Source of the DNA: Candidatus Bathyarchaeota archaeon
GTDB lineage: Archaea; Thermoproteota; Bathyarchaeia; 40CM-2-53-6
Assembly: GCA_963726255.1 (NCBI GenBank)
Contig: CAVSBL010000002.1
Coordinates: 2,112,001-2,176,000, forward strand
Length of the DNA stretch: 64,000 nt
Direction: 5' to 3'
The position numbers were made by a program, and so were the translations under genes. Positions 22,088-41,493 of the stretch are shown here, piece after piece (the stretch's first letter is position 1; the number at the start of each line of letters is the position of its first letter). Under the pieces are notes generated by a model. The model worked only from the letters and a program-made list of their open reading frames with translations, was not told the origin of the DNA and did not search any database.

Positions 22088-22091
22088 GTGT

Positions 22092-23657
22092 TCACGCCGC
22101 CATCGAGATCTTCTTCGCACCTGTCATCAGGAGTCCGATCTCTTCCATGTTGAACTGTCCGGGTTCGAGCAATCCGACTACCTGGCCTTTGTACATGACT
22201 GCAACTCTATCGCTCAGGGTGATCAGCTCAGCTAGGTCTTCGTCGACTAGGAGTACAGCAGCGCCTCGATTTCGTTGTTGAACCAAAATGCTCCTGACGT
22301 ATTCTGTTGCGGCTACGTCGAGGCCGCGCGTTGGTTGTGAAACCACAATGAGTGAGGGTTGCCCAGACAGTTCTCTTGCTAAGATTAGCTTCTGAAGGTT
22401 TCCGCCGGAAAGCGACCTTGCTTTTGCAGAAATACCTGTCGTCTTAATGTTGAACTGTTTGATGGCTTCCTCTCCCCTGTGCGTAATCTCTTTGCTATTC
22501 AGCAAGGTTGGTACCTTGTTGGCTAGCATATTGCAAATGGGTGGTTTATCGAAGTCTTTGAGGATCATATTTTCGTCTAAACGAAAGTCCGTGATAATGG
22601 CGTCCTCGGTTCTGTTTTCGGGGACGTAGGCGAGGCCTAAGTCAATTATCCTGCGAGGTGACTTGCCAGTGATGTCTATGCCTGCAAACTTTAGGGATCC
22701 TGAAGAGCTCCTCCTCAGTCCCACAATGGCTTGAACAAGTTCTCTTTGGCCATTCCCGGATACACCGGCTATTCCGAGGATTTCTCCTCTTCGAACTTCG
22801 AAAGTGACGCCCTTGACCGCTTCGAGGCCTCTATCGTCAAATACAGAGAGTTGTTCTATTTGCAGAACAACTTCCCTTTCCGAAGTCCTTGTCTTGTCGG
22901 CGATTGGAGGAATCTCCTCGCCAACCATCATGTGAGCTAACTTTTCCTTGTTTACAGCTTGCGTCGCTTGCGTGGTAACTTTGCGTCCTTTCCTCAAAAC
23001 CGTGACCCTGTCTGTGACATCCATTACTTCGTCAAGTTTGTGAGTGATTAGAACGATGGAGATTCCCGTGTTTTTCAATCCGCGTAATGAGTTGAAGAAA
23101 TCACTAACCTCAGTAGGTGCGAGAACGGATGTAGGTTCGTCAAGAATCAGAACTTTCGCGTCACGATATAATGCTTTGAGAATTTCGACACGTTGGAGTT
23201 CCCCTACCGCGAGTTGCCAGATCTGAACCTTAGGGTCAACGTGCAGACCATGTTGTTCTGATAAGCGTGAGATTCGCGTCTCGGCCGAAGCTATGTCCGT
23301 CAGTATTCCTCTGGGAGACTTCAGTCCCAAGATTACGTTTTCTGCCACAGTCATGTCGCTCACAAGTTTGAAGTGTTGGTGTACCATGCCGATACCCCGC
23401 TTGATTGCGTCGGATGGGGAGCGAAACGCGGCAGGTTGACCGAAAATTTCAATCGAACCAGCGTCTGGTTGATAAAATCCATAAAGGATATTCATGAGCG
23501 TAGTCTTCCCGGCACCGTTCTCTCCTAGGAGCCCATGTATTTCGCCAGCATGAAGCTCAAAATCTACCATATCATTTGCCACGACGCCGCCAGGAAATCT
23601 CTTCACAATACCCCGCATCACGACGGCGGGAGTTTCATTACTTATCTCATCTACCAT
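22092..23657 (-). CDS. nucleoside ABC transporter ATP-binding protein (NupA-like, two ATPase domains)
   Basis: GENGAGKTT, MVHQHF, LDEPT, GVSGNGQ, LSGGNLQK, QPTRGLD. Confidence 0.95.
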   Translation of the reverse strand: MVDEISNETPAVVMRGIVKRFPGGVVANDMVDFELHAGEIHGLLGENGAGKTTLMNILYGFYQPDAGSIEIFGQPAAFRSPSDAIKRGIGMVHQHFKLVSDMTVAENVILGLKSPRGILTDIASAETRISRLSEQHGLHVDPKVQIWQLAVGELQRVEILKALYRDAKVLILDEPTSVLAPTEVSDFFNSLRGLKNTGISIVLITHKLDEVMDVTDRVTVLRKGRKVTTQATQAVNKEKLAHMMVGEEIPPIADKTRTSEREVVLQIEQLSVFDDRGLEAVKGVTFEVRRGEILGIAGVSGNGQRELVQAIVGLRRSSSGSLKFAGIDITGKSPRRIIDLGLAYVPENRTEDAIITDFRLDENMILKDFDKPPICNMLANKVPTLLNSKEITHRGEEAIKQFNIKTTGISAKARSLSGGNLQKLILARELSGQPSLIVVSQPTRGLDVAATEYVRSILVQQRNRGAAVLLVDEDLAELITLSDRVAVMYKGQVVGLLEPGQFNMEEIGLLMTGAKKISMAA

Positions 23658-23733
23658 TCGCGTCTACGCCCTGTTCGTCGTGGAGAATAAAAAAATAGGA
23701 GGGGAAGCCCTCTGTGAGAGAGCTTGCGGACGT

Positions 23734-24921
23734 TTAGTTGCGCGGCTGCTGCAGACCTATAGCAATGAAGAAACTGGTCTGAATCGATTGAAGCGATGTT
23801 CCAATCGTTAGTGGGCCGAGTGGGTCGGTTTGAATTTGGCCGCCTTGGACTTGCGATGCGACGCTCATGACTTGCTGTTGAACGGCCGCTGGAACATTGT
23901 CCTTGTTCAGTTCGATTTCCAACCCTCCAGTCTGGAGGTTTGCCCAGTACTTGCCGTTTGTCTTTCCTGCGGCTACATCAGCGAGCCATTGTTTCATTAC
24001 TGCGTCCCATTTCCAAGAACCACTCCCTAGGACCAGCTTCTCACCACCAACAGGTGGGTTGTCTGCTATGTCGACACCGTTACCGATCAGGCTCACGTTC
24101 TTCTCAATTGCCCCTTCGATGGTTCCGAGCACGACACCGTCGCCCATCGTCGCGATCACGTCGACGCCCTGGCTCGCCATCAATTCAGCATCAGATTTAG
24201 CGCCCTGCAAATCGTGGAAGTCACCTACTGCGACAACACTAATGCTGCCGCCTGGTTGAATGCCATTGCCGCCGCCCGGCAGAGGTCCATATGTGTACAT
24301 GATGTTTGAATTTGCGTCGTGCGCACCTTTCGCAAAGTTCGGTTCGAATCTTGCAAGTTCGGCGACCCTCGCACCCATAATGTACCCAATCTTGTTAGAC
24401 ATGGTCATCTTTCCGGCTAAGTAGCCGAGAATGTATCCTGTCTGGTCCGTTCGGACGTCTGCGATAGCGAGGTTTGGTAGTGAGTTATTCCATCCCGCGA
24501 TTACTAGGAAGTTTGTGTTGGGGTATTGTGGAGCAATTTCCTGAATGGGAATCTGAAACTCGAAACCGGAACCGATTATCAGGTTGTATCCCTTGCTGAC
24601 GAAGTCTCTGACATCAGCCTGAATCTGAGCGCTTTCCTGATGGTTTTGTACCCAGCATCCGCAGGTGTTTATGCCTTCGTTCATACTGGTCAGGAGGTCT
24701 TCAAATGAAGTGTAGCTTGCTTGGTTCCACGCAAGGTCGTCTGTTCGGCCGGGCATTATCATTGCGATCTTCATTGGCCCGCTCGTCATGGATTCAGTCA
24801 TTGAAGTGTTTGTAGCGGGTACCGATGGTTTCTGTGTGAGGTAGTATGCTGCGCCAGCGACGATGATGAGAACGACTATTACGACAGCCATGATTGTTTT
24901 GTTGTTCTTTGCTTGACTCAT
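23734..24921 (-). CDS. BMP/PnrA family nucleoside-binding protein with N-terminal membrane anchor
   Basis: N-terminal TM and S/T linker, then D.AWNQ..Y, IIG.GFEF, GY..GYLAG.MT, GDF.D, GVDVI. Confidence 0.88.
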   Translation of the reverse strand: MSQAKNNKTIMAVVIVVLIIVAGAAYYLTQKPSVPATNTSMTESMTSGPMKIAMIMPGRTDDLAWNQASYTSFEDLLTSMNEGINTCGCWVQNHQESAQIQADVRDFVSKGYNLIIGSGFEFQIPIQEIAPQYPNTNFLVIAGWNNSLPNLAIADVRTDQTGYILGYLAGKMTMSNKIGYIMGARVAELARFEPNFAKGAHDANSNIMYTYGPLPGGGNGIQPGGSISVVAVGDFHDLQGAKSDAELMASQGVDVIATMGDGVVLGTIEGAIEKNVSLIGNGVDIADNPPVGGEKLVLGSGSWKWDAVMKQWLADVAAGKTNGKYWANLQTGGLEIELNKDNVPAAVQQQVMSVASQVQGGQIQTDPLGPLTIGTSLQSIQTSFFIAIGLQQPRN

Positions 24922-25825: not shown

Positions 25826-27227
25826 GTGTTCATCATGGCATCTATTCTGATTTCCGGCGGAACAATCATAACCATGGATTCAAATCGGCGAGTGATCAGG
25901 AACGGAGCCGTTCGGGTCGAGAACGATCGCATCGTCGAACTTGGAAAGGCAAACCAAGTCGGGACGCAGTCGCAGGCGGAGTCCGAACTAGACGCAAGCG
26001 GTATGGTTGTGCTCCCGGGCCTGATAGATACGCACGTGCACCTCGCCCAAGCTCTTCTTCGAGGTTGTGCCGACGATACCTCCTTGATAGATTGGCTACA
26101 GAAATTCGTTTGGCCACTTCAGGGCAACTTCGAAGCGGAGGATGGTAGGACGAGCGCGGAACTGTGCATGTTGGAAATGATTAAGTCAGGAACGACAACC
26201 TTCCTTGAGAGCCTCTTACACTCGCGTTACGGATTCGACGGCATCGCTGAAAGCGTGCAGAAATCTGGAATGCGCGGTTTTCTCTCCAAAACAGTGATGG
26301 GGCTACCCGGCTATGGGACCGAAAAGAGCATAATGCATCCGGGAATGATCGAGGACGCGGAAACCTGCCTTCACGAAGTCAAATCCCACTTCAAACGTTG
26401 GGATGGGAAGGCGAATGGGAGAATTAGGGTTTGGTACGGTGCTCGGTCGCTAGGTGGCTGCACAAAGGAATTGTACGAGCTTATCGCTAAAGGCGCTCAA
26501 GAGCTTGGGACGGGCGTCACGATGCATCTGAGCGAGGTCCAGGAGGATGTGCGATACGCCAAGAAAGAGTTCGGAATGATGCCTGCAGAATTCATGAACA
26601 AAGTCGGCTTAGCGGGACGAAATGTTGTTTTCGCGCATGGGGTATGGTTGACGGAGAGTGAGTGGGCCATACTAGCTCGGAAGGGTGCGCATGTGGCGCA
26701 CTGCCCATCTTCGAACATGAAGCTATCGTCTGGAATTGCTAGCGTTCCTGAGATGTTGAAGGCCGGTGTAAATGTCGGCCTCGGATGCGATGGCGGGCCA
26801 AGCAACAACTGCTACGATATGGTCCGTGAAATGAAGACCGCTTCGCTACTTCAGAAGGCCAGATTGCTCGACCCGCTGACTATGAGCGCTGAAACAGTCC
26901 TAGAGATGGCTACTATAAACGGGGCACGCGCTCTTAGGACTACAGAACGATCTTGGTTCGATAGAGGTCGGAAAGAAAGCCGATATGATCTTGATAACGT
27001 TGAAAAAACCGCACTTGACACCCGCTTTCAACCCCGTGTCACATCTTGTATACGCGGCGGAGGGAACCGACGTACAGACAGTAATAATTGATGGAGAGGT
27101 AGTGATGGAGAACCGAAACCTCAAAACACTCAGAGAAGAGGAAATCCTCAAAGAGGCCAGCAACAGAAGCGAAAAGCTTCTAGAACGGGCGGGTCTGGAA
27201 GTCAAACCTAAGTGGGCTATTAGTTAA
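25826..27227 (+). pseudogene. amidohydrolase (SsnA/MtaD/DadD-like nucleobase deaminase family) interrupted by a +1 frameshift at about 26935
   Basis: PGLIDTHVH, MHLSE, AHCPSSNMKL, LGCDG. Removing one base in CTCTTAGGA restores GARALGLQNDLGSIEVGKKAD and joins ORF 26985-27227. May be a sequence error. Confidence 0.85.
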
Positions 27228-27282: not shown

Positions 27283-28379
27283 ATGAGCATAAAATGGACG
27301 AAATCCAGTAAGGTCGCAGATGGAGTGTTCCAAACGATTGGCCGAACTCCACTCGTTAGACTAAGGAACATACCTGCCTCTGAGGGTGTCAAAGCAAACA
27401 TTCTGGTTAAGCTTGAGTACATGAACCCCACGGGCAGCTTGAAGGATCGTATCTATTTCGAGATGATAACGAAAGCGATTGCGCGCAAGGAGCTCCGGCC
27501 TGGAATGGAGATTCTCGAAGCCTCCACAGGGAACGCGGGTATCGCTTGCTCATTTGTTGGAACAACTCTAGGTCACAAGGTGACCATAGTCATGCCGGCA
27601 GGCATGAGTCAGGAGAGAATGAAGATCATTCGAGCGTACGGAGCCGAAATCATTACTACGCCAGGCGGTGAGAGCGACGTAGACTTATGTCTAAACGAAA
27701 TTGAGGAGCTGAAACAAGCAAGCCCAAGCAAGTATTGGGAGCCAGGGCAATTTAGCAACAAAGACAATGTTGCGGCACACTACAAAACGACAGGTCCTGA
27801 AATTTGGGAACAGAGCGGGGGAAAAGTTGACTGTTTCCTCGCCTCGCAGGGGACTGGAGGAACATTAACTGGTGTGGGAAAGTACCTAAGAAAGAAGAAA
27901 AAGAAGGTGGCCCTCTTCGCCGTGGAACCTTCCGAAGCTCCAATCCTTGCCCACCGTCAGTGGGGAACCCACAGAATTGAAGGTGTCGGGGATTGGGCTG
28001 TCCCAAGAATCCTTGACGTCAGCCACCTCACTGGGATAGTTAATACGCGCTCTGATGTTTCCATTGAAATGGCCCGAAGGCGAAGGAAGAAGGAATCTTT
28101 TGCGGAAATAGGGAAGAGGGGAAAGTCGCTAAGGAAGAGGGAATCTTTTGCGGAATATCGTCAGGCTGCAAAGTACTAGCTGTTCTAAAAGTGGCCAAGC
28201 GTCACCCTGAATACAAGACGATTGTAACTATGGTGAACGACACTGGTCAGAGATACTTCTCGACCGAACTCTGTGGCGAAAAGAAACATGTGGAACTCCC
28301 TGAAAGAGAAGTACCGTTTGACGAGTATACAACGACGGAGCTGAACACATACGAATCGCGTTGGGAAATAGTTGAATGA
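27283..28379 (+). pseudogene. PLP-dependent cysteine synthase family protein disrupted by a local duplication and frameshift at about 28080-28155
   Basis: NPTGSLKDR, ASTGNAG, GTGGT, HRIEG. The C-terminal KEEGIFCGISSG...DTGQRYFST is in another frame and the KEEGIFCG segment appears twice. Confidence 0.85.
28083..28155 (+). repeat. imperfect 25-nt direct repeat, period 48
   Basis: aaggaagaaggaatcttttgcggaa (28083-28107) and aaggaagagggaatcttttgcggaa (28131-28155). Confidence 0.85.
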
Positions 28380-29626
28380 CATCTTTCCTTAAGCTGATGA
28401 AATGTGCGCGCTGTGGGAAGGAATATCCGCCTGAATCTGGCGCAATCCGGTGCGTGAACAAAGACGACGGCCGTCTAGATATTTCCTATGACTACGATGC
28501 TTTGCGCGATTTCGTCAGCGTGGAGACATTTTCGAAAAGGCAAAGAGGGGTTTGGAAATACAGGGAACTGCTGCCAGTTAATGATCCGAAAAACATAGTG
28601 ACCCTCGGAGAAGGCGGAACGCCTTTCCTTCCGGCACACCGCCTAGGCGACAAACTCGGCCTAAGTAATCTTTGGCTGCTCGATGACACACGCAATCCGA
28701 CAGCCTCATTCAAAGATAGACCGATGACTGTTGGCGTTTCAAAAGCTGTTGAGTTAGGATACAAAACAGTGGTGTCAGCTTCCAGCGGTAACGCCGCTGC
28801 GGCGCTGTCAGCCTACTCTGCTAAGGCGGGGCTCAAATGCATCACCTTCGTCCCAGAGATGGCGAGCATAGGAAAATTGGCTCAGCTAACGATGTACGGG
28901 GCTCATGTCGTGAAAGTTCGAGGGCTAGAGTCAGGGGAGGACCCGACTGTGAAAATGCTCAAGGCTGTTTGCGACCGGAAAAATTGGTACCCTTGCCCAA
29001 GCTTCGGCCCTATGAATCCCTACCAAGCGGAGGGCCCGAAGACCATGTCGTATGAGATTGTTGAAGGACTGAGTTGGGAGGTTCCTGACTGGGTTTTCGT
29101 TCCGGTAGGTGCAGGAGGTGCATTAGCAGGAAATTGGAAGGGCTACTTGGATTTTCAGAACTTAGGTTTCATAAGATCAATGCCGAGAATGGCAGCGGTC
29201 CAATCGACCGGTTGCGCGCCCGTGATCCGTGCGTACGAGCAGGGCGCCGACCCGAAAAACATAGTTCCATGGGAAATGCCTGACTCCGTCGCAACAGGAC
29301 TCATGGACCCGTATCCTTGGGACGGTGATGCAGCTCTCGTTGCTATCCGGAGTTCTCATGGGGCAGCCGTTTCAGTCTCCAACGAAGAAATCCTAGAGGC
29401 ACAGAGGAAGCTCGCCAAGCTCGAAGGAATTTTCGCCGAGCCGTCCGGCGTAACTTCACTTGCCGGCTTGATCAAAGAGCGTGAAAAAATAGACAGGGCC
29501 GATTGTGTCGTGGTAGAAATAACGGGAAGCGGTTTGAAAGATCCGAATGTAGCAACGAAGGGAATGCCCGAGATACCTATCATTGATTCCTCGTTTCAAG
29601 AATTGGAACGAGTGTTGAAACTCTAA
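28376..29626 (+). CDS. thrC: threonine synthase family PLP enzyme
   Basis: N-terminal CxxC, TLGEGGTP, NPTASFKDR, ASSGNA, VPVGAG, EGIFAEP, TGSGLKD; ATGA overlap with the upstream gene. Actual substrate uncertain. Confidence 0.8.
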   Translation: MTSFLKLMKCARCGKEYPPESGAIRCVNKDDGRLDISYDYDALRDFVSVETFSKRQRGVWKYRELLPVNDPKNIVTLGEGGTPFLPAHRLGDKLGLSNLWLLDDTRNPTASFKDRPMTVGVSKAVELGYKTVVSASSGNAAAALSAYSAKAGLKCITFVPEMASIGKLAQLTMYGAHVVKVRGLESGEDPTVKMLKAVCDRKNWYPCPSFGPMNPYQAEGPKTMSYEIVEGLSWEVPDWVFVPVGAGGALAGNWKGYLDFQNLGFIRSMPRMAAVQSTGCAPVIRAYEQGADPKNIVPWEMPDSVATGLMDPYPWDGDAALVAIRSSHGAAVSVSNEEILEAQRKLAKLEGIFAEPSGVTSLAGLIKEREKIDRADCVVVEITGSGLKDPNVATKGMPEIPIIDSSFQELERVLKL

Positions 29627-29693: not shown

Positions 29694-30719
29694 TCATCTT
29701 TTCTTGTTGCCCATGGTCACTGCGAGAACGGCCATTTTGGTGTACATTCCATTCTCGGCTTGAGGATAGATAACTGAGTGGCGGCCATCCATGACCTCAT
29801 CGGTGGCTTCTTCACCGCGAAGTACGGGCAAGACGTGAGTCACAATCGCTTTTCTCTCCATCTTGTCGAGCAAATCCTGAGTGAGCATCCAATCACGATA
29901 CTTCTCATGTAGTTCTACCTCTCTTTCCTTGCCGAACTTGCTCGCGCCCAATTGCAGTAGTTCGTTCGAGGCCCAATTTCTGGGGAAAACCGCCTGCGCT
30001 CCTTCGATCGCTGAATTGAGGTCGTTTGAGACTTCGAAGGTGCCGCCTGATTCTCTGGCGTTAGATTTTGCCGTCTCAACAATTGTTGGGTCGATTTCGA
30101 AGCCCGGCGGGTGGGCGAGAACGACATTCATCCCAAAGCGCGGCATGATTAGTGCTTCTTCTTGTATGCTGCATCTACCTCGGAAGCTCTTTGCATAACC
30201 CCACATTATGACGTACTTCTTCCCCTGCACCTTGCCCAACGCTTCCTGAGTCGTCATCAAGTCAGCAAGCCCCTGGGTGGGGTGGTAGGTGCAGCAGGCC
30301 ATGTTTATGACAGGAATCTCGGCGTGCTTGGCGTACTCTCGAACAACAGACACACCGGCCCCGTAAACGTAGTCGATTGCGGAATCAAGAATTCGAATAC
30401 CTAGTCCCTGGCCATACTTCTCATACATCTTGGCCACATCTTTCGGGGCCTCCCCAGACCCTAGTCGAGTCGTTGAGACGTCAATGTACAGCGCATGTCC
30501 ACCGAGATAGGTCATTCCAGCCTCAAAGGCTGCCCTAGTTCTAGTCGACGGTGCATAGAACAACATGAAGAACGTCTTATTTCGAAGGAGAGTTGGAACC
30601 CGACCACGCCGATATTTCGCTTTCAGGTCCCGCGCTAGCTTGAGCGTTGCCCTGAGCTCATCAACAGACCACTCTTGTGTAGTGATCAAGTCTCTACCCG
30701 CCAAATCAATCCTAGACAT
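29694..30719 (-). CDS. carbamoyltransferase, non-canonical (YgeW/AOTCase-like branch)
   Basis: STRTR, HPTQ, QAEN present; HVLP replaces HCLP and PRNWAS replaces the OTC DxxxSMG motif. Confidence 0.88.
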   Translation of the reverse strand: MSRIDLAGRDLITTQEWSVDELRATLKLARDLKAKYRRGRVPTLLRNKTFFMLFYAPSTRTRAAFEAGMTYLGGHALYIDVSTTRLGSGEAPKDVAKMYEKYGQGLGIRILDSAIDYVYGAGVSVVREYAKHAEIPVINMACCTYHPTQGLADLMTTQEALGKVQGKKYVIMWGYAKSFRGRCSIQEEALIMPRFGMNVVLAHPPGFEIDPTIVETAKSNARESGGTFEVSNDLNSAIEGAQAVFPRNWASNELLQLGASKFGKEREVELHEKYRDWMLTQDLLDKMERKAIVTHVLPVLRGEEATDEVMDGRHSVIYPQAENGMYTKMAVLAVTMGNKKR

Positions 30720-30851
30720 TAAAGTCTCTCCAGTTTTCGTCAGCGTCAGCTCTTCCTACTAAATAGAACTTTCCGATTCGAGAAAAAGCATGAAAGTTCA
30801 TAAGGGGTAAAGTGGGACCGTGTGCGTCTACGATCGTGAGCTGAACCGAGG

Positions 30852-31805
30852 TTGACAGACAAACTCATAGTTATTGCCCTCGGGGGAAACGCTCTCCTCC
30901 GGCGAGGGCAGAAGGGCACCTTCGAAGAGCAATACCGCAACGTGAAGGAAACCGTAACGAAGATTGCGGATCTGATTGAACGCGGATACAAAATAGTCAT
31001 GACGCACGGGAATGGTCCGCAGGTGGGTGCCACACTTCTGAGGCACGAAGCCGCGAAGAGCATCGTTCCAGCTCTTCCGCTTGACGCGTGTGGCGCTGAG
31101 ACGCAAGGGTTCATCGGATACATGATTCAACAGGCTCTCAGAAACGAGCTCAAATCACGCGGGATCGACAAGTACGTTCTCACCATCATAACGCGGGTCA
31201 TTGTCGACAGGCATGACTTAGCTTTTCAAAATCCCACGAAACCGATCGGCCCCTTTTACTCCAAGGAGGAAGCAGCCAAAGTGAAAGAGCAGAAGCCAGA
31301 GCTGGTCATCAAAGAAGATGCTGGCCGCGGCTACAGACGCGTCGTCCCCTCTCCAGACCCAAAAATAATCGCAGAGCGCTCCGCCATTAGGGCCTTGGTA
31401 GATGCTGGTTTCGTTGTAGTTGCATGTGGCGGTGGGGGAATCCCAATCATAGAAGAGAATGGACTCGCGGTCGGAGTGGAGGCCGTAATCGATAAGGATC
31501 TGGGAGCCCAACGCTTAGCAACCCTGATCGGCGCTAACATCCTTGTAATCCTAACTGATGTGGAAGGCGCCTACATCAACTATGGAACACCCAAACAGGA
31601 GTTGATTAGAGAAGCCTCTTCAGGCAAGCTAAAGAATTATCTTCGAGAAGGCCAGTTCAAAGAGGGAAGCATGGCACCAAAAGTCGAGGCTGCAATCAGG
31701 TTCGTCGAAAGCGGCGGCGAGCGGGCAATAATCGCAGCCTTGGGCAGTCTGACCGAAGCCCTTGAAACAAAGACCGGAACGCAAGTTGTGATGCCAAGAG
31801 CTTAA
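30852..31805 (+). CDS. arcC: carbamate kinase
   Basis: [52 protein letters not shown]. Confidence 0.96.
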
Positions 31806-31847
31806 TTCAAATAACGGCAGCCAACAGGGCACGACGAGGTTACAGGG

Positions 31848-32918
31848 TTGTTGTCATTCGTAGGTAAGTGGAAAGCTAAACATTTCCTAGACACAAATGA
31901 TTTCTCGCAAGAACAAATCAAAGAAGTTCTGGATGCAGCGGATGTTCTGAGGAAACTATTCCGATCGCGCAAGGAGCATCGATACTTATCTGGAAAAACA
32001 CTCTTCATGATGTTCTATAACAGGTCGCTCAGGACAAGGAATTCTTTCGAGGCCGGAATGTATCAGCTCGGCGGTCACGCGCACTTTCTTAGCCCACAGG
32101 ATGTGTATACCCCCGCGTTGCCGGAAGATATGGTCGCGTACCAGACTGAGGCCATCTCTGACGTTTCCCGCGTCCTAAGCAGGTACGGAGACGCGATTGC
32201 GATTAGAATCTATGGTGATGCCGCGAAATGGAACATAGGCAGGGGCCACAAGGTTGTACAGGAATTTGCCAAATACGCAACAATCCCCGTGCTAAACATG
32301 GAAGACGATATGTATCACCCCTTTCAAGCACTCGCCGACGCGCAGGCTATGAGAAACGCTATTCCAAAGCTTCAAGGAAAGAAACTCGTAGTTTCCTACG
32401 CCTACTCCGGCGGGCTGAAGCCGCTCGCTGTCCCTCAAAGTGAGGTTCTGATTGGAACACAGCTTGGAATGGATGTCGTTCTCGCGCACCCGCATGGTTT
32501 CGAGCTGGAAGACGTCGCACTTGATGCCGCGAAGGCGAATGCGGATAGATATGGCGGCGGATTCCACGTAGTGAATGATATGAAAGAAGCGTTCAATGGC
32601 GCTGATGTTGTGTACCCGAAGGCTTGGTCTCCGAAGAACTATTTCCCACCCCACAGCGGCGCCTTAGATAAGGACGGTGCAACCAGCTACCAGGACAAGT
32701 TCAAGGACTGGATTTGTACCCAGAAGATGATGGACCTTACGAAGAAGGGCAAGTATATGCACTGCGGCCCGGCCGACCGAGGCCAAGAAGTTACTGACGA
32801 AGTAATCGACAACGAGAGTTATTCACTGTACTTCGAACAAGCCGAAAACAGGCTACACGCCCAAAAGGCCGTAATGGCCATGGTCATGGGAGATCGCCGC
32901 GGTCCACGTCGAAAGTAA
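31848..32918 (+). CDS. YgeW-like carbamoyltransferase
   Basis: SLRTR, HPFQ, YAYSGGLKPLAVPQS, YPKAWSP, MHCGPAD, resembling recalled YgeW motifs WAYS...KPLSVPQ, YPKSW, MHCLPAD; no SMG motif. Confidence 0.88.
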   Translation: MLSFVGKWKAKHFLDTNDFSQEQIKEVLDAADVLRKLFRSRKEHRYLSGKTLFMMFYNRSLRTRNSFEAGMYQLGGHAHFLSPQDVYTPALPEDMVAYQTEAISDVSRVLSRYGDAIAIRIYGDAAKWNIGRGHKVVQEFAKYATIPVLNMEDDMYHPFQALADAQAMRNAIPKLQGKKLVVSYAYSGGLKPLAVPQSEVLIGTQLGMDVVLAHPHGFELEDVALDAAKANADRYGGGFHVVNDMKEAFNGADVVYPKAWSPKNYFPPHSGALDKDGATSYQDKFKDWICTQKMMDLTKKGKYMHCGPADRGQEVTDEVIDNESYSLYFEQAENRLHAQKAVMAMVMGDRRGPRRK

Positions 32919-32978: not shown

Positions 32979-33476
32979 ATGACTAAAGCTAAACCCAGTT
33001 CAATCGTGCTTGCAAACTGGGGAAGGCGATTCATCGCATGGTTAATCGATTATGTCACCATAAATGTGATGCTCGCATATTTCAGAGTAGAAGACATAGA
33101 GTCACGACTTATCCCAATAATCCTCTTGCCTCGCCTACCAGGGTTTGACATCTCAATCTGGTCCCCCATCTCAGTGTTGACCTTCTTTCTCTACTGGTCT
33201 CTATCGGAATGGTACTTCGGAAGGTCGATTGGGCAATTATTGCTGAACATTAGACTTGCTGACATGCAGGGAAGAAGGCCCAGTCTGGTCGCTTCAGGAA
33301 TCCAGAGCGTCGGAAAGTCTCTCCTACTTCCTCTAGATTGTGTGATCGGTTGGGCCTACCCTTCATGCCGGAAACATAGACAACGGTTCTTCAACATGCT
33401 GTCTAATACTATTGTCATATACATTGGGACGCCGATGCACGCCCTCAAGCAAGGAGATTACACAAGAGAAGCTTGA
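32979..33476 (+). CDS. RDD family membrane protein
   Basis: LANWGRRFIAWLID, Y...SE...GRSIG, QR.F.MLSNTIV. Confidence 0.88.
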   Translation: MTKAKPSSIVLANWGRRFIAWLIDYVTINVMLAYFRVEDIESRLIPIILLPRLPGFDISIWSPISVLTFFLYWSLSEWYFGRSIGQLLLNIRLADMQGRRPSLVASGIQSVGKSLLLPLDCVIGWAYPSCRKHRQRFFNMLSNTIVIYIGTPMHALKQGDYTREA

Positions 33477-33563
33477 ATTCCAACCGCTGGAACAGAGAAT
33501 CAGTCTCGATAGGACAAGGGTTGGACTTATAATTCGTAAGTACAAACGGTAAGTGGAAACAGC

Positions 33564-34511
33564 ATGGCAGAATATGACATAATCATAATCGGTTCTGGTC
33601 CAGCAGGACTCACAGCAGCAATCTACGCTGGCCGCGCACTTGTCAAGACTCTCGTCGTCGCGGGAAGGATGTCAGGCGGCCAACTCATGCTTACGAGCGG
33701 CGTGGAAAATTTCCCAGGGTTCTCCGACGGAATACAAGGCCCCACCCTCATGGAGGAGATGAGGAAACAGGCTGAGCGGTTTGGGGCGGGGTTTCTTGAT
33801 GACGATGTTGAATCGGTAGATTTTTCGCGTAAGCCGTTCCAAGTTAACGTCGGGGGCAAGGTTCACCATTCAAAAGCGGTGATCATAGCGACGGGGTCAT
33901 CGGCCAAATGGTTGGGCCTAACTTCCGAAGAGAAGTTGCGTGGCCGAGGCGTTTCCAGCTGTGCAACGTGCGACGGCTATTTCTTTAGAGGAAAGCGAGT
34001 CGTCGTCGTTGGCGGTGGAGACACGGCGATCGAAGAGGCCCTTTTCTTAACCAAATTCGCGACCGAAGTTGTCGTTATTCATAGACGCGACCAGCTGCGT
34101 GCCAGCAAAATAATGCAAAGGAGAGCGCTATCCAACGACAGGATCAGGTTCCTCTGGAACTCAGTGATCGAAGATATCCTCGGAAAGCAAAGTGTCGAAG
34201 GCGTAAGGGTCAGAAACGTCGAGACAGGTGAGCAATCAATTGCCGCATGTGATGGCGTCTTTGTGGCAATCGGGTTTCAACCCAACACGAAGATCTTCGG
34301 AAGCCAAATACGGCTTGATGAGAAGGGCTACATCCTTTCTGGGGACGGGACGAAGACCTCCGTGGATGGTGTATTTGTCGCAGGAGACGTGCATGATTTC
34401 AAGTACCGCCAAGCCATCACGGCAGCCGGCGAAGGTTGTAAGGTAGCCATGGATGCGCTTGCTTACCTGGAAGAGCAGAAAGAATTGACTTTAACGGCCC
34501 CACAGAAGTAA
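33564..34511 (+). CDS. trxB: thioredoxin-disulfide reductase
   Basis: GSGPAG, VENFPG, SCATCDG, GGGDTA.EEA, HRRD, FVAGD. Confidence 0.96.
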   Translation: MAEYDIIIIGSGPAGLTAAIYAGRALVKTLVVAGRMSGGQLMLTSGVENFPGFSDGIQGPTLMEEMRKQAERFGAGFLDDDVESVDFSRKPFQVNVGGKVHHSKAVIIATGSSAKWLGLTSEEKLRGRGVSSCATCDGYFFRGKRVVVVGGGDTAIEEALFLTKFATEVVVIHRRDQLRASKIMQRRALSNDRIRFLWNSVIEDILGKQSVEGVRVRNVETGEQSIAACDGVFVAIGFQPNTKIFGSQIRLDEKGYILSGDGTKTSVDGVFVAGDVHDFKYRQAITAAGEGCKVAMDALAYLEEQKELTLTAPQK

Positions 34512-34570
34512 TCTAGACCCCCAATATTCTAGGTTAGAACATCCCCGCATCACTCAGGCGGGGCTTTGAA

Positions 34571-35824
34571 TTGAAGGCCATTGTTCGGTGGTCGAATGGA
34601 GTAGCCTTACGCTACGGGGAAACCAAGCTGCTATTCGACCCTGTCGAAAGCGACCCTGCTATCCCAGACGTTTTCATAACTCACGCCCATTACGATCACT
34701 GCAAAGGCTTTCAGTTCCCAACCCAAAAGAAGTACTCGACTAAGGAAACACGTGAGCTCTACGAGGCCGACAGTAGCCGCAAGGTTGGGGACTGGCAGCA
34801 GGTTCGATTAGGACGCCGTCTGAAACTCGGAGAAGTCGAGGTCGAAGCGCATGAAGCTGGGCATGTGTTGGGCGCGGTTCAATACGAGGTTATCACGCCG
34901 GAAGGTAGTATCGTCTATGCCAGCCACATCAATTTCGTTGACACGCTTCTAACTCACGCTGCCGGCGTAGCTCCATGCGAACTTCTAATCATCGAGACAA
35001 CACTAGCTTCCCCTTCACGAGTCCTTCCGAAACGAGAGTCGACGGTTGCTGAGATAGTAAAATGGGCTTTAGAATGCATTAAGGAGAGGAGAATTCCTGC
35101 ATTCATAACTGATCCGATTGGCAATTCTCAGGAACTCCTGAAAATCTTCAACAACTGGACTGAGTTGCCCGTCATAGTTCACCCGCGAATAGCCCGCGTC
35201 AACAAGGTCTACGAGAATAATGGCGTGGCACTACGTTACACAGATTCTTCGACTCCGGAATCGCAGAGCCTGATTGAGACCGCTCAGTGCATAGTCGTAG
35301 TCCCCAGGGGGTTTGACACGAGCCGTTTTGGGGATTTCAGAACCGCCATCGTCTCAAGCTGGGCAAGTAGAGTTGACGATGCGGATGGAAAGGGCTTCCA
35401 GTTAAGCGATCAAGCAGACTTCAATCAGTTGCTACAGTTTGTGCAAGAAGCAAGGCCTAAGAATGTACTCACGTTTCGCGGAGCGAGTAAACTTTTCGCG
35501 CAAACGGTCTCTCGGAGACTTGGGATAGCCGCCAACGAATTGGCAGCGAACATCAGCCGTCCCAAACCGCCTAAACTGAGGTTAGATGAAAGTCGAATTG
35601 GAAAATGCCAAGATGTTCTGCTGGATGCGATTCAAATTCCGAATTTCACCTATGAGAAGAGAGGCCTCCTCGCGTTGGGAATCAAGGAAGGTTTCAAGGG
35701 TCCGGAGGTTGAGGAGGCATTGCTCAGGCTAACCAAGGACGGGGTTCTGAATTATTCAGAGTTACTTGACGGGTACAATCGGTTGGCCGATCGCGACTCG
35801 AAACGAACAGCCGAACAAGACTAA
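34571..35824 (+). CDS. MBL-fold beta-CASP-type nuclease-like protein with degenerate motifs and C-terminal extension
   Basis: ITHAHYDH, AGHVLG, LIIETT; YASH in place of YTGD and LSDQAD in place of LSDHAD. Confidence 0.8.
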   Translation: MKAIVRWSNGVALRYGETKLLFDPVESDPAIPDVFITHAHYDHCKGFQFPTQKKYSTKETRELYEADSSRKVGDWQQVRLGRRLKLGEVEVEAHEAGHVLGAVQYEVITPEGSIVYASHINFVDTLLTHAAGVAPCELLIIETTLASPSRVLPKRESTVAEIVKWALECIKERRIPAFITDPIGNSQELLKIFNNWTELPVIVHPRIARVNKVYENNGVALRYTDSSTPESQSLIETAQCIVVVPRGFDTSRFGDFRTAIVSSWASRVDDADGKGFQLSDQADFNQLLQFVQEARPKNVLTFRGASKLFAQTVSRRLGIAANELAANISRPKPPKLRLDESRIGKCQDVLLDAIQIPNFTYEKRGLLALGIKEGFKGPEVEEALLRLTKDGVLNYSELLDGYNRLADRDSKRTAEQD

Positions 35825-35936
35825 AGGCCGAGGCCTTTGAGGAGAAACTTGTGCTGGCAGTAGGGGCAGTGATGGGTTTCGCAGGAATCGTCTGGCCGCA
35901 ATAGGCACATCTAATGTATGGTGAACCAAATGACAT
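35821..35936 (-). pseudogene. putative 38-aa zinc-ribbon micro-protein split by a 1-nt frameshift
   Basis: MSFGSPYIRCAYCGQTIPAK in one frame and THHCPYCQHKFLLKGLGL* in the -1 frame. Adding one A to gcgaaacc gives C-x2-C-x10-C-x2-C. Confidence 0.45.
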
Positions 35937-36083
35937 TTGTGACCAACAGAAAAGCCGTTGGTAGTTTTCATTTTGAGATTTCTTTACTATATCTGCCAAC
36001 CTTCGCTCTTATTGTGACACAGTAATTACAAGGTCTAGGCAAGGTTACACGGCGCTCAGAAAGCCTGAAATTCACATCGTTTC

Positions 36084-37439
36084 ATGCAGCATCCATGTGA
36101 CATGACGTTGGACCAAGCAGTTCTGAAGGAGTCGGGATACGTCAAACGAACTCCGATGTCCCGTGCGATGTTCGAGCGTGCCAAACGGGTTGAGCCCGCC
36201 GGAATTTCATATAAGAACAGAGACTTCGAACCATACCCATTCTTCGTCAAGGAAGCTAAAGGTGCGAAGCTTACTGACGTCGACGGAAACACGTACACTG
36301 ACTACTGGTGTACGCATTTCGCAATGATTCTCGGGCATGCACACCCAATCGTAATGCAAGCCATTAAGACGCAAGTAGAGAGGGGCTGGCATTTCGGCCT
36401 CGCCCACGAATTCGAAGTGACACTCTCAGAAACAATAACGAAAAATGTCCCAAGCGCTGAGCTAGTTCGTTACACAAGTTCCGGTAGCGAAGCAAATTTC
36501 TTCGCGATTCGCTTAGCGAGAACCTTCACTAAGCGAGACAAGATTGCCAAGCTGGAAGGCTGTTGGCACGGCGCCTACGATCCTCTCCACCTTGGCGTGA
36601 GGCCTCCCCTAGACAAGCCCTTGTCAGGTGGAATCACGAAGGCATCACAGCAGGATACCATACTGGCTCCCTACAACGACCTCGAAGGCTTCCTCAAGCG
36701 CATTGCGCGGGAGAAATTGGCATGCGTAATCCTAGAGCCAGTCCTGGGCGCGGGTGGAATGATACCTGCCGAGAAGGCCTTTCTCGAAGGGCTAAGGGCG
36801 TACTGCGACGACACTGGTGCCTTAATGATCTTTGACGAAGTAATCACTGGATTCCGGCTTGGTTTAGCTGGAGCACAAGGATGCTTCGGCGTGAAACCGG
36901 ACATCACCGTAATGGGCAAGATCATTGGCGGTGGACTGCCAATTGGCGCGCTCTGCGGCCGACGCGATATAATGGAGCGAATGGATCACACGAAATACAC
37001 GGGTTCAGACTACGCTTACCACGGAGGGACCTTTGCGGGCAATGCGATCACGCTTGCTGCAGGCCTCGCGACAATAAATGTCTTGCAACATTCGCCAGTG
37101 TACGAGCATGTTAACCGACTAGGACAAGAAACTCGCCACACACTGAACAGAATATTTGAACAGAACGCATTTCCAGCACACGCGACTGGGATAGGTTCAC
37201 TTTTCGCCATTCACCTGACCCGAGAGCGTCCGATACGGGACGCAAAGAGCTACGCTAACAGCGACCATGAACTCTCCAAGAAACTTTTCAGCCATTTGAT
37301 TGAGAGCGAGATCCTAATGATCGTACCCGAGATGCTACACGGAGCTATCAGCTATGCGCACACCGACTCTGACGTTAAACACTTGAGTTCCGCTGTAGAG
37401 GAATTCGTGAAAGGCAACAACCGAAGAGGGACGCCCTAG
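36084..37439 (+). CDS. class-III PLP aminotransferase, glutamate-1-semialdehyde aminomutase-like
   Basis: DVDGN.Y.DY, ILGHAHP, SGSEA, FDEVITGFR, GKIIGGGLP, GTFAGN; DYWCTHF differs from the usual HemL DYVGSWG. Confidence 0.85.
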   Translation: MQHPCDMTLDQAVLKESGYVKRTPMSRAMFERAKRVEPAGISYKNRDFEPYPFFVKEAKGAKLTDVDGNTYTDYWCTHFAMILGHAHPIVMQAIKTQVERGWHFGLAHEFEVTLSETITKNVPSAELVRYTSSGSEANFFAIRLARTFTKRDKIAKLEGCWHGAYDPLHLGVRPPLDKPLSGGITKASQQDTILAPYNDLEGFLKRIAREKLACVILEPVLGAGGMIPAEKAFLEGLRAYCDDTGALMIFDEVITGFRLGLAGAQGCFGVKPDITVMGKIIGGGLPIGALCGRRDIMERMDHTKYTGSDYAYHGGTFAGNAITLAAGLATINVLQHSPVYEHVNRLGQETRHTLNRIFEQNAFPAHATGIGSLFAIHLTRERPIRDAKSYANSDHELSKKLFSHLIESEILMIVPEMLHGAISYAHTDSDVKHLSSAVEEFVKGNNRRGTP

Positions 37440-38476
37440 AAAGTCTTCAGCATCACAGACCGGTCCTGTTCTGGCAGATTCTGACAGGGTGGGAACGGAG
37501 GCAGGTCCAACATTGTTCTCAACCCCGGTTGCAGGCTAATGACTTTCAGGATTGAATTGACTACTATGGCAGGGGTCGCTCGGTCTCCTTGCACTCCGCC
37601 GCGTATCACCATATCTACTGGAGGGATGCCGTCGAGTAGTACAGAGTCATGGGGATTCTCTGCACCAAGGTACATTCGCAGGTCTAGGACTACTAGTTCT
37701 TGACCCGCGAGAATGCCCTTCGCGACTTGGCGGACCCCTGCTACGGAACCGGCTGGGACCGTCACGTAATCGCTCTTCGCTTCCTTCTCCGCGACGACAG
37801 GGCTAATCCTCTCCTGAATTTCTCCTACCTTCCAACCCATAGCCAGAGCGATGAGGCCCACTGACTCAGGTAAACCCACATGCTTTATGGTTCCCTCGGC
37901 CACTTTCTTCTCAAATTCGCTCGGTGACAGGCCTGCTCCAATTTTCTTCTGCAACGGCAGTCTGCGCCTCGATGCGTCCACGACGCGTTCGGCGCGAATG
38001 GAATTCACTTTTTGACAAACGCCGCTCAACGCGACTGCCAAAGTGTCTAGGAGGAAGCCTGGGTTAATGCCAGTTCCGAGGACTATAACTCCCTTATCGC
38101 GCGCACGCTCGTCGATCTCCTTTGCCATCTCAAGATACTTGACAAATGGATATGACAATTCCTCAGCGGTCGATACAACACTCGTTCCATGCTCGATAAG
38201 CTGAATGATCTGTGGATGAATCGTCTTCATGTAGGAAGAAGTAGCGTGAGTTACAATTTGTGGCGAGGTCTGCTTGAGGACTTTTTCCACTCTGTCAGTT
38301 ACCGTCACACCAATTTTTCTCGGTTTCTCTAGTAACTCTCCAACGTCTTTTCCGACTTTGTTCTTGTCGATGTCGATAGCCCCGACCAGTTGGACCCAGG
38401 GTCGGGTAAGAAGAACTTCAACTATCCCTAGTCCAATTGGGCCTAGGCCATATTGAACGATCTTGATGTTCTTCAA
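37436..38476 (-). CDS. NAD(P)H-dependent amine dehydrogenase family (2,4-diaminopentanoate dehydrogenase/Ord-like)
   Basis: YGLGPIG Rossmann motif, STAEELSYP, GTGINPGF, HVGLPES, GD.AT. Confidence 0.8.
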   Translation of the reverse strand: MKNIKIVQYGLGPIGLGIVEVLLTRPWVQLVGAIDIDKNKVGKDVGELLEKPRKIGVTVTDRVEKVLKQTSPQIVTHATSSYMKTIHPQIIQLIEHGTSVVSTAEELSYPFVKYLEMAKEIDERARDKGVIVLGTGINPGFLLDTLAVALSGVCQKVNSIRAERVVDASRRRLPLQKKIGAGLSPSEFEKKVAEGTIKHVGLPESVGLIALAMGWKVGEIQERISPVVAEKEAKSDYVTVPAGSVAGVRQVAKGILAGQELVVLDLRMYLGAENPHDSVLLDGIPPVDMVIRGGVQGDRATPAIVVNSILKVISLQPGLRTMLDLPPFPPCQNLPEQDRSVMLKTF

Positions 38477-38610
38477 TCGCTAACTCCCTGCCTTCTCACT
38501 TGGCGGGTCTATTCAAGGGCCTATGTAAAAGACATTCAATGACCGCACATACAATAAACGCGAAACCTCTTTTAGCCCTCCTAGGGCCGTCGCTATCTGG
38601 TAGTAACCCG

Positions 38611-40644
38611 TTGCTTGCCACGCTGTTGGATCTTGCACACCGCGTGAACTACGACCTTATGCCGGCCTTCACAGCCCTTCTGATGTATTCGATTCTCACA
38701 GTGTTCGCCGTAGTATTCCTCTACGGCGTCTACAGGCGCTTGCGCATCTACTTCAGAGGAGCTCCTCCTCCAAAGTTTGACCACCTTAAGGAGCGGGTCC
38801 TCAAGGCAGTAGCAAACGCGTTCATGCAGAGAAAAGTCTTGAAGAAGAAGTACCCCGGCATCATGCACCTTCTCATTTACTCTGGCATAATCGTACTCTT
38901 GATAGGGACGACTTTAGTGTTCCTTGATTCTGACATCTGGGAGACCATCCTCCATAGTCAAATCCTAGTCGGCAGTTTCTATCTCTTCTTTGAACTCTTC
39001 TTGGACGCTTTCGGCCTCGTCGCCATAGCTGGCCTGTTAATCGCGATCTTCAGAAGGGCTATTTCGAGGCCACCGAACCTGCCCACCTCTCGTGGTGATA
39101 TCTACATCTTTTCGGTTCTCTTGGTTATCCTGACAACGGGTTACGTGTTGGAAGCGATTCGACTCGCCGTTGATAAGCCGCCTTGGGCGCAGTGGTCGTT
39201 TGTCGGCTACCAACTTTCCCTCTTGCTGATAGGCCGTGGGCTCGACACTCAGGGAATCATGACCTTTTACCGAGGGCTGTGGTGGTTCCACGCTCTCCTT
39301 GCGTTTACGGCCGTTGCAACCATTCCGTACACGAAACTCTTTCACCTCATCACTTCACCGCTGAATGCTCTCTTCGGACACTTGCGACCGAAAGGCCAAC
39401 TCAGCACTCCATTTGACCTGAAACAGCTGTTGGCTTCAGGCAACTTCGACATCAAGGTCGGAGCGGCGGCTATTACTGACTTCTCTTGGCAACAGAGGCT
39501 GACATTTGACTCGTGCACTTCATGCGGGCGGTGCACTAACGCCTGTCCCGCAACTGCTGCTGGTACTCTTCTCTCTCCTATGCACCTGATCCTGAAGCTT
39601 AGGGACGTGATGCTCGCGCAAAAGGCGACTGACGGCGGAAGCGTCGTGGTACCAGAGGTCGTCAACCCGGAAGAACTCTGGGCATGCACAACCTGTAGAG
39701 CATGCGTTAACGAATGCCCAGTTCTCATCGACCACGTCGACGCCATAGTCGATATGAGACGGCACTTAGTCGGGGAAGGAAAACTCGATCGGGGCAAAAA
39801 GGATCTGCTCACGAACCTAAACAACGTTTCCAACCCCTACGGCTTGCCACGATCGGACCGCATGAAATGGGCCGAAGGCCTCGACGTGAAGACTGTCAAG
39901 GAGCAACCGGAATTCGACGTACTCTACTGGGTTGGCTGCTCCGGGTCGTATGACCCCAGGAACCAAGACGTATCGAGGGCCATCGTGAAGATACTGAAGG
40001 CGGCCGGAGTGCGTTTTGCTGTCCTCGGAAACGAAGAGAAATGCAACTGCGAGGTAGCCCGACGGCTAGGGGAAGAGGGGCGTTTTCAGCAAGCGGCTCT
40101 GGAACTTGTGGACTTATTCAGGAAATATAACGTCAAGGCAGTTCTTACGCAATGCCCCCATTGTTTCAACACTTTCAAGAACGAGTACCCGCAGTTCGGC
40201 GCTGACCTGCAAGTGATGCACCACTCACAATTCATCGCCCAACTTATTGCGACTGGGAGGTTGAAAGTCAAGAAAAGCCTCCAGGGGAACGTAACGTTCC
40301 ATGACCCGTGCTACCTCGGGCGGTACAATAACATCTTTGATTCGCCTAGAGAGGTCATAACTTCCATCAGCCCAACACAGATCATGGAGATGCCGAGGTC
40401 TCGCGAAAACAATTTCTGTTGCGGTGCGGGCGGAGCAAACTTCTGGTATAAGGTCGAGCAGAAGAAGAAAATCGGTGTAATACGTTTCGAGGAGGTACAA
40501 CAAGTGAGCGCCAACACATTAGCGACTGCCTGTCCATTCTGCACCTCGATGCTCGAGGATGCGTCGGTTGCACTGGGTGCCAAAGGTACTGTTGCGGTGA
40601 GGGACATCGCCGAACTTGTTGCAGACCAACTTGAGAATTCCTAA
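38611..40644 (+). CDS. membrane-bound Fe-S oxidoreductase (FadF/EMO-like; cytochrome b, 2x4Fe-4S and CCG domains)
   Basis: TM region with His ligands (GIMH, WWFH, KLFH), CTSCGRCTNACP, CTTCRACVNECP, CPHC, HDPC, CCGAGG, ACPFC; precedes etfBA. Start approximate. Confidence 0.9.
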   Translation: MLATLLDLAHRVNYDLMPAFTALLMYSILTVFAVVFLYGVYRRLRIYFRGAPPPKFDHLKERVLKAVANAFMQRKVLKKKYPGIMHLLIYSGIIVLLIGTTLVFLDSDIWETILHSQILVGSFYLFFELFLDAFGLVAIAGLLIAIFRRAISRPPNLPTSRGDIYIFSVLLVILTTGYVLEAIRLAVDKPPWAQWSFVGYQLSLLLIGRGLDTQGIMTFYRGLWWFHALLAFTAVATIPYTKLFHLITSPLNALFGHLRPKGQLSTPFDLKQLLASGNFDIKVGAAAITDFSWQQRLTFDSCTSCGRCTNACPATAAGTLLSPMHLILKLRDVMLAQKATDGGSVVVPEVVNPEELWACTTCRACVNECPVLIDHVDAIVDMRRHLVGEGKLDRGKKDLLTNLNNVSNPYGLPRSDRMKWAEGLDVKTVKEQPEFDVLYWVGCSGSYDPRNQDVSRAIVKILKAAGVRFAVLGNEEKCNCEVARRLGEEGRFQQAALELVDLFRKYNVKAVLTQCPHCFNTFKNEYPQFGADLQVMHHSQFIAQLIATGRLKVKKSLQGNVTFHDPCYLGRYNNIFDSPREVITSISPTQIMEMPRSRENNFCCGAGGANFWYKVEQKKKIGVIRFEEVQQVSANTLATACPFCTSMLEDASVALGAKGTVAVRDIAELVADQLENS

Positions 40645-40690
40645 CCTTTTAATGCGATTGTAAGTTGAGGGAAACTAATTCATTCTGTGA

Positions 40691-41491: not shown

Positions 41492-41493
41492 CT

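Follow-up and report, generated by a model that had tools for sequence, protein, structure and literature searches.

The 64,000-nucleotide window analysed here (the whole stretch of DNA, taken from a Bathyarchaeia genome) is a purine-catabolism island in which two different carbamoyltransferase genes, CT1 and CT2, flank a carbamate kinase (CK). CT1 (29694-30719, minus strand; 341 aa) belongs to an archaeal 'HVLP' family, the kinase (30852-31805, plus strand; 317 aa) is of the arcC type, and CT2 (31848-32918, plus strand; 356 aa) belongs to an 'HCGP' family. All three are intact open reading frames (ORFs); CT1 and CK are divergent, with a 132-bp spacer between them, and CT2 follows CK after a gap of 42 bp. 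This arrangement is the one that a sequence-only reading of the DNA had proposed: the ORFs lie exactly where it had placed them, both transferases contain the Pfam domains OTCace_N and OTCace, and CK scores 429.1 bits on the arcC equivalog TIGR00746, above its cut-off of 358.25. CK is the sole copy found in the genome and is 48% identical to E. coli YqeA, and CT1 and CT2 are 37% identical to each other. The motifs reported by that reading were all recovered by motif search: STRT58, HPTQ146, HVLP295 and QAEN320 (QAENG) in CT1, and SLRT60, HPFQ157, HCGP305 and QAEN331 (QAENR) in CT2. The same search found neither the ornithine loop DxxxSMG nor RxQxER in either protein, and the H..P motif is HVLP or HCGP rather than the HP[LG]P of aspartate carbamoyltransferases (ATCases). 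No arg genes occur near the two transferases and CK, which are surrounded by purine-catabolic genes.

CT1 and CT2 fall below the curated cut-off of every NCBIfam family. On the ornithine carbamoyltransferase (OTC) models TIGR00658 and NF001986, with cut-offs of 280.85 and 306 bits, CT1 scores 210.6 and 211.7 bits and CT2 232.9 and 237.1 bits; on the acetylornithine carbamoyltransferase (AOTCase) model NF003384 (cut-off 288 bits), CT2 reaches 277.3 and CT1 202.0; and the putrescine carbamoyltransferase (PTC) cut-off is missed by both. The YgeW models NF005538 and TIGR03316 (cut-offs 453 and 500) give 164.6 and 158.1 bits for CT2 and 134.7 and 127.3 bits for CT1. Searches of solved structures returned the P. 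furiosus OTC as the best match of CT1 (184 bits) and the X. campestris AOTCase as that of CT2 (210 bits, with 139 for the YgeW structure 3q98). AlphaFold2 models of CT1 and CT2 (pLDDT 96.7 and 94.6) were compared with known folds by Foldseek, which ranked AOTCase at the top for CT2 (TM 0.87/0.93, 37% identity) and placed the P. furiosus OTC and AOTCase alike for CT1 (TM 0.86-0.87, which does not separate the families); in neither case did YgeW appear among the top ranks listed. By score and fold, CT2 is nearer to AOTCase than to YgeW, and the earlier statement that it closely resembles YgeW does not stand, given 31% identity, scores far under the cut-offs and AOTCase as the nearest structure.

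An alignment made with MAFFT, including CT1, CT2, E. coli YgeW, ArgI and PyrB, the genome's own OTC and aspartate-carbamoyltransferase-like (ATC) sequences and an AOTCase representative, locates these differences in the proteins. CT1, CT2 and CT3, a third paralogue encoded elsewhere in the genome (C2:1468214-1469263; 352 aa, HCLP; 57% identical to CT2), contain an extended 120s loop, an insert absent from OTC and ATC that Shi et al. (review, PMC4581275) give as characteristic of knotted transcarbamylases and that is shared with YgeW. CT2 and CT3 also have a proline-rich loop, KPL(A/S)VP(Q/H), which reads GGLKPLAVPQ in CT2 and KPLSVPQ in YgeW, and CT2 has a lysine equivalent to K270 of YgeW; the CT1 loop is of the same length and has no prolines (KSFRGRCSIQ). 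Unlike YgeW, however, all three paralogues lack the N- and C-terminal extensions and the long 240s insert, and CT1 and CT2 are 30-31% identical to E. coli YgeW, scoring 127-165 bits against cut-offs of 453 and 500. Membership of CT1 or CT2 in the YgeW family is ruled out by these scores and by the missing extensions and insert.

The likeness of CT2 to the X. campestris AOTCase (PDB 3kzk and related entries) extends to length, the 120s loop and 37% identity, and we therefore compared the residues that contact or discriminate the acceptor, given as W77, E92, N185 and K302 together with E144 and K252 (PMC4581275). Since the AOTCase representative in our alignment (P0193) is numbered differently from the X. 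campestris enzyme, positions were mapped through the PDB alignment, in which the chain number equals the native number plus 20. Four of the six differ in CT2: W77 is replaced by tyrosine (Y87), E92 by threonine (T100), N185 by proline (P192) and K302 by glutamate (E314), with E144 and K252 retained as E152 and K258. CT1 also loses this last pair, having alanine at the E144 position and arginine at the K252 position of the MAFFT alignment, and it has glycine in place of arginine after QAEN, as in ATCases. Its motifs fit the YTCase pattern S[LT]RT / HP[TMF]Q / H[AVC]LP as tabulated by Barba 2013 (Table 1). Judged by sequence, CT1 and CT2 are two separate families of transferases that are neither OTCs nor ATCases.

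For phylogenetic placement, the 150 best 50%-cluster representatives for CT1 yielded 107 full-length sequences, all labelled by NCBIfam, of which 69 were used and 38 (mostly OTC- or AOTCase-labelled) were dropped to limit tree size; the addition of 14 window, genome, relative and E. coli sequences gave 83 rows. In the quick maximum-likelihood (ML) tree, with SH-aLRT as the sole measure of support, a knotted-type clade (support 98) encloses a core AOTCase clade of 14 rows (support 100), which leaves out CT1, CT2 and CT3, and its sister clade of 44 rows (support 96). This sister clade holds CT1 in a subclade of 27 rows, CT2 and CT3 in one of 6, and YgeW in one of 11. Because both proteins fall within it, inside the knotted-type clade, CT1 and CT2 stand apart from ordinary OTCs, and the non-OTC status that the sequence-only reading had claimed is borne out by missed family cut-offs, missing defining residues and positions outside the OTC rows of the tree. 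Clustering with ordinary OTCs is thereby set aside for both proteins, but an approximately unbiased (AU) test did not reject the CT2 group joined to the AOTCase clade (delta lnL 8.2, p-AU 0.258). CT2 is placed outside the AOTCases by its residues and context, not by the tree.

Five carbamoyltransferase-fold genes were found in the genome: CT1, CT2, CT3, a canonical OTC (DVWVSMG, HCLP, 421.6 bits) and an aspartate-carbamoyltransferase-like gene with an HPLP motif, assigned without a family-model scan. Arginine deiminase, whose absence from the window had been claimed, was found neither there nor in the rest of the genome, the best arcA match reaching 35 bits against a cut-off of 489. Given a canonical OTC and an ATC-like gene elsewhere, no arginine deiminase and a single arcC-type kinase, CT1 and CT2 are surplus to biosynthesis. 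Two candidate roles were thereby rejected, namely the arginine deiminase pathway, for want of arcA in the genome, and an ordinary argF, in view of the canonical OTC. It is very improbable that CT2, perhaps together with CT1, serves arginine synthesis as an anabolic N-acyl-ornithine carbamoyltransferase or acts on citrulline as a catabolic OTC. This role would agree with the score of CT2 only just under the AOTCase cut-off (277.3 against 288 bits), with AOTCase as its best solved match, with the outcome of the AU test and with the names given to relatives by automated annotation, which, as anticipated, are of the argF type: 'ornithine carbamoyltransferase' for CT1 relatives at NCBI and JGI, and 'ornithine' or 'N-acetylornithine carbamoyltransferase' for CT2 relatives. 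It is contradicted by the four changed acceptor or discriminating residues of CT2, by the absence of DxxxSMG from both proteins, by the canonical OTC, by the lack of arg genes nearby and of an arginine deiminase in the genome, and by a distribution that tracks SsnA rather than arginine synthesis (28 of 300 genomes, see below). Unlike AOTCases, CT1 and CT2 do not lie in an arginine cluster and score under the family cut-off.

The gene context points elsewhere. The reductive urate pathway, worked out in gut bacteria in 2025 and presented as bacterial, is outlined as leading from urate to 2,8-dioxopurine (XdhD or DOPDH), through a reduction (YgfK or UacX) and the successive action of SsnA and HyuA, to 2,3-diureidopropionate, which undergoes phosphorolysis by YgeW, hydrolysis by YgeY and conversion by YgeX to pyruvate (Li et al., 10.1101/2025.05.19.654654; Liu et al., 10.1101/2025.04.24.650524; Percudani, PMC12990295). 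According to the first two of these accounts, YgeW together with YqeA yields ATP from diureidopropionate in bacteria. As with E. coli YgeW and YqeA, genes for a putatively catabolic carbamoyltransferase and a carbamate kinase adjoin here within a purine cluster that includes Xdh, and SsnA and hydantoinase-type genes belong to the set. Specifically, an SsnA-like gene lies outside the window at C2:1.86 Mb; it is 33% identical to E. coli SsnA and scores 424.7 bits on NF005540 (cut-off 444), SsnA being its best family. Beside it is a HyuA-like (hydantoinase-like) gene with 29% identity, and mocA is nearby. Since the SsnA-like amidohydrolase is a marker of the reductive urate pathway, with its intermediate 2,3-diureidopropionate, it backs a purine role. 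We propose with moderate confidence, from sequence and gene context, that the reductive (2,8-dioxopurine) purine/urate pathway has an archaeal variant, in which CT1 and CT2 serve as two different catabolic carbamoyltransferases. A role of the diureidopropionate type had already been suggested by the sequence-only reading; it is supported by the purine context and the archaea-wide co-occurrence and frequent adjacency with SsnA-like genes, and what falls is the close resemblance to YgeW.

The genes of the window would supply much of such a pathway. A BMP/PnrA-type ABC transporter (binding protein, ATPase and two permeases; 20075..24921, minus strand), likely a nucleoside or purine importer, would take up purines; the island also includes a permease. 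Deamination would fall to an adenine deaminase (14410..16218, minus strand) and to an amidohydrolase of the deaminase/TRZ-ATZ superfamily (25826..27091, plus strand). Hydroxylation or reduction would be carried out by two Xdh-family molybdenum enzymes of three subunits each (5239-8929 and 9191-13121), encoded with an XdhC-type maturation factor (4400..13121 in all, minus strand), and by F420-type reductases, for which two luciferase-like (LLM) oxidoreductases are present, one a candidate F420-dependent reductase (2752..3669, plus strand) and a second that adjoins the Xdh genes (13385..14383, plus strand). In Chloroflexota, replacement of YgfK by an F420-type luciferase-family enzyme has been proposed (Li et al., bioRxiv 10.1101/2025.05.19.654654). 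Ring opening to 2,3-diureidopropionate would be the work of the SsnA-like amidohydrolase and the hydantoinase-like enzyme encoded elsewhere. CT1 and CT2 would then cleave the ureido groups with phosphate, the single CK would convert each carbamoyl phosphate into ATP, CO2 and NH3, and a ThrC-like pyridoxal phosphate (PLP) enzyme would probably convert 2,3-diaminopropionate to pyruvate and ammonia. This enzyme (28376..29626, plus strand) is a third, divergent threonine-synthase paralogue, the two others in the genome scoring far higher on threonine synthase models, and we infer a candidate role for it in the last step, the deamination.

Two genes of the island are disrupted in this genome. The amidohydrolase is frameshifted (intact orthologues, 463-497 aa) by one extra T near 26934 (26930-26940), where the window reads GCGCTCTTAGG against GCGCTC-TAGG in the 98%-identical orthologue of genome G021, and its frame shifts after about residue 370; this could be a real pseudogene or an assembly error. 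The CysK-like PLP enzyme (27283..28179, plus strand) is cut short, an imperfect tandem duplication of about 44 nt near 28081-28125 having repeated the peptide (...KKESFAE...RKRESFAE...) and broken the frame; its intact orthologues of 350-358 aa reach the cysteine-synthase subfamily (cysKM) cut-off. Near-copies (~97%) of both genes lie on the small contigs C1 and C5 of the genome, which suggests that these are strain-variant fragments, consistent with the contamination estimate of 9.3%. Downstream of CT2, a set of genes is kept with the cluster in the genus (32979..43759): an RDD protein, a thioredoxin-reductase-like flavoprotein, an MBL-fold protein, a class III aminotransferase, an Ord-like diamino-acid dehydrogenase (a 2,4-diaminopentanoate dehydrogenase homologue, 302 bits against 400), an HdrD-like Fe-S protein, EtfBA and FixC. 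The genes at 36084-43759, from the class III aminotransferase to FixC, stay with the cluster in the genus and not in other phyla.

Within the genus, a CT1 orthologue (at least 79% identity) occurs in 19 of 22 genomes, and 17 of these also have a CT2 match a few kb from CT1 on that contig. In the shared gene order, CT1 is divergent from CK-CT2, and CK-CT2 is followed by the genes for RDD, TrxR, the aminotransferase, the Ord-like dehydrogenase and HdrD/Etf. SsnA-like orthologues are likewise present in 19 of the 22 genus mates, and among the 40 nearest relatives those with only one of CT1 and the SsnA-like gene are all 67-88% complete. Genus mate G014 has no kinase between CT2 and CT1; some 130 kb away on the same contig it encodes another carbamate kinase (45% identical) with two OTC-branch carbamoyltransferase paralogues, and the same region holds a weaker carbamoyltransferase-fold match (25% identical), an ABC transporter and aminotransferases. 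Across the phylum, a sample of 300 genomes, each at least 80% complete, contains CT1 in 28 (E-value limit 1e-105) and the SsnA-like gene (1e-95) in exactly those 28; CT2 (1e-100) and the ThrC-like enzyme (1e-110) each occur in the 28 and in two further genomes, and carbamate kinase (1e-50) in 107, including all 28.

Relatives of CT1 were also located by a scan of genome contigs, and the best 80 of 470 loci, examined for neighbours within 10 kb, span at least seven archaeal lineages: Bathyarchaeia, Nitrososphaerota/Caldarchaeales, Hadarchaeota, Desulfurococcales, Korarchaeota-type, Baldrarchaeota and Hodarchaeaceae metagenome-assembled genomes (MAGs). Carbamate kinase lies within this distance of CT1 at 42 loci, the ThrC-like enzyme at 39, a CT2- or CT3-type transferase at 35 and an SsnA-type or related amidohydrolase at 31, followed by the CysK-like enzyme (13), Xdh (10), a hydantoinase-like enzyme (9), a PreA/DPD-like Fe-S flavoprotein (9) and the M20 peptidase of the present genome (2); E. 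coli YgeY-like or YgeX-like neighbours were found at none of the 80. Several Desulfurococcales loci have the consecutive order CT1-CT2-CK-SsnA-PreA-like-ThrC-like. Two contigs filed under bacterial MAGs (L042 and L081; Candidatus Acidoferrum and Methylomirabilota), with CT1 at 81-82% identity and Bathyarchaeia gene order, are probably mis-binned archaeal contigs. Motif search found STRT in all 62 full-length CT1 orthologues and HVLP in 54 of them; CT2/CT3-type proteins have HCGP in 27 of 34 cases and HCLP in the other seven.

Unlike the E. coli pathway, the archaeal set comprises two transferases rather than one, YgeY and YgeX orthologues were not found in this genome, which instead has ThrC-like and CysK-like PLP enzymes and F420-type LLM genes. 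Tblastn with E. coli YgeX and YgfK gave no match in the genome at 1e-5, and with YgeY it gave only weak M20 matches (23-26% identity, at most 72 bits). Because no YgeY orthologue was found, the second transferase could stand in for the hydrolase, and the two always co-occurring transferases fit two phosphorolytic cleavages. It is plausible that CT1 and CT2 act in sequence, with two ATP per purine as opposed to the one of E. coli, where YgeW is followed by the hydrolase YgeY. The substrates of CT1 and CT2 are putative, and a division of labour between them is tentative and speculative: CT2 would cleave the 3-ureido group because it keeps the Glu/Lys pair that AOTCase and YgeW use for an N-alpha-acylated amino acid, a pair that would suit an N-alpha-carbamoylated acceptor, and CT1 would cleave the 2-ureido group because these positions are occupied by Ala and Arg and the Arg after QAEN is missing, an ATCase-like pattern that would suit an alpha-amino acceptor. 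Extended to archaea at large, the proposal would be that a hydrolase-free lower branch yielding two ATP is widespread among Bathyarchaeia, Caldarchaeales, Desulfurococcales, Hadarchaeota and others, and that two hitherto unrecognised carbamoyltransferase families share the task, with CT2 acting on the 3-ureido and CT1 on the 2-ureido group, the latter through an ATCase-like acceptor site on a knotted-type scaffold, and with the ThrC-like enzyme replacing diaminopropionate ammonia-lyase; this wider version we hold as possible, with some doubt.

Alternatively, both proteins may serve the purine pathway with one alone cleaving diureidopropionate and the other acting on a different ureido compound, such as a carbamoyl amino acid derived from a hydantoin, or the N-carbamoyl-beta-alanine formed when pyrimidines are degraded reductively; a hydrolase would then remove the second ureido group of diureidopropionate, or that group would be lost as urea through beta-elimination by the PLP enzyme. 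The PreA/DPD-like and dihydropyrimidinase-like genes of the clusters are compatible with a pyrimidine-reducing role as well, the class III aminotransferase is retained downstream in the genus, M20 hydrolases are present in the genome, many loci have CT1, CK and the ThrC-like gene alone side by side, and the position of CT3 by a creatininase would indicate recruitment of the group to other ureido or hydantoin routes. We nevertheless regard this alternative as unlikely, though deserving of attention, given that CT1, CT2 and the SsnA-like gene share 28 of the 300 genomes and CT1 was found in none without the other two, that both transferase types lie within 10 kb at 35 of the 80 loci, often adjoining SsnA, and that no YgeY orthologue was found in the genome.

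The strict co-occurrence of CT1 and CT2 could also reflect a mixed oligomer with a single activity, or one in which one partner is non-catalytic. The active sites of this fold are described as lying between subunits (PMC4581275), and CT1 lacks the Arg after QAEN as well as the acceptor-site Glu and Lys. Yet STRT, HPTQ and HVLP are retained and strongly conserved in CT1, ATCases lack the same Arg, and the two genes are often far apart (about 109 kb in genome G162) and on opposite strands here, so that we consider such an oligomer very improbable.

Several observations weigh against the archaeal purine pathway with two catabolic transferases that we favour. Its co-occurrence pattern is drawn from few independent lineages, namely three families and this genus: the 28 module genomes fall in three families (13 of 14, 12 of 12 and 3 genomes), so independent co-occurrence events are few. 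Hydantoinase-like matches (1e-75; 34-42% identity) follow this pattern poorly, being present in 19 of the 28 and in 23 genomes outside that set. M20 hydrolases are present in the genome, one adjoining a third Xdh set and an LLM gene, so a hydrolase could still take off one ureido group. CT1, with QAENG, is without the arginine through which OTC and AOTCase bind carbamoyl phosphate, and CT3 passes the AOTCase cut-off (313.6 against 288). To these are added the AU test result for CT2 and the disruption of the neighbouring amidohydrolase and CysK-like genes. A search for RNA sequencing runs covering positions 29600-33000 listed none.

Two further loci in the genome deserve mention. CT3 has as neighbours a creatininase (275 bits against 235), an F420-type LLM oxidoreductase and an MmgE/PrpD protein, and its locus may be another ureido or hydantoin route. 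At C2:1655000-1662000, the third Xdh-type set, an F420-type LLM oxidoreductase and an M20 peptidase of the ArgE/DapE family lie side by side; in two genus mates (L046 and L047), an orthologue of that peptidase is found a few genes from CT1-CK-CT2.

The closest precedents couple a carbamoyltransferase to a carbamate kinase in degradation. In the arginine and agmatine deiminase pathways, OTC or PTC likewise performs ureido phosphorolysis, followed by ATP formation through CK; unlike in those pathways, however, no deiminase gene or DxxxSMG motif was found here, and CT1 and CT2 score under the OTC and PTC cut-offs. The ureidoglycine carbamoyltransferase of Rubrobacter xylanophilus, Rxyl_2847, is likewise described as mis-annotated and as encoded next to a carbamate kinase among purine-degradation genes, where it has been proposed to take the place of an amidohydrolase (Barba 2013). 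By contrast with CT1 and CT2, which lie on the OTC/knotted branch, it is assigned to the ATCase branch (HPLA or H[ST]LP) and to the oxidative allantoate route.

In our literature search, no account of the reductive urate pathway in archaea, or with two transferases, came up, although the supplements and extended data of two bioRxiv preprints, which lay outside that search, may bear on its distribution; the word 'archaea' occurs in neither primary paper on the pathway. One MAG survey demanded at least 63% identity to C. sporogenes YgeW (Liu et al., 10.1101/2025.04.24.650524), a threshold that very probably excludes CT1 and CT2, whose identity of ~30% is to E. coli YgeW, not that of C. sporogenes. 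If, as may be, the single-contig genomes of the Desulfurococcaceae-type family f21 come from cultured carriers, the hypothesis could be examined in the laboratory. If it is true, abundant archaea of sediments, peat and hot springs would ferment purines, gaining two substrate-level ATP per purine instead of one, and two large protein families now labelled 'ornithine carbamoyltransferase' would acquire a function.

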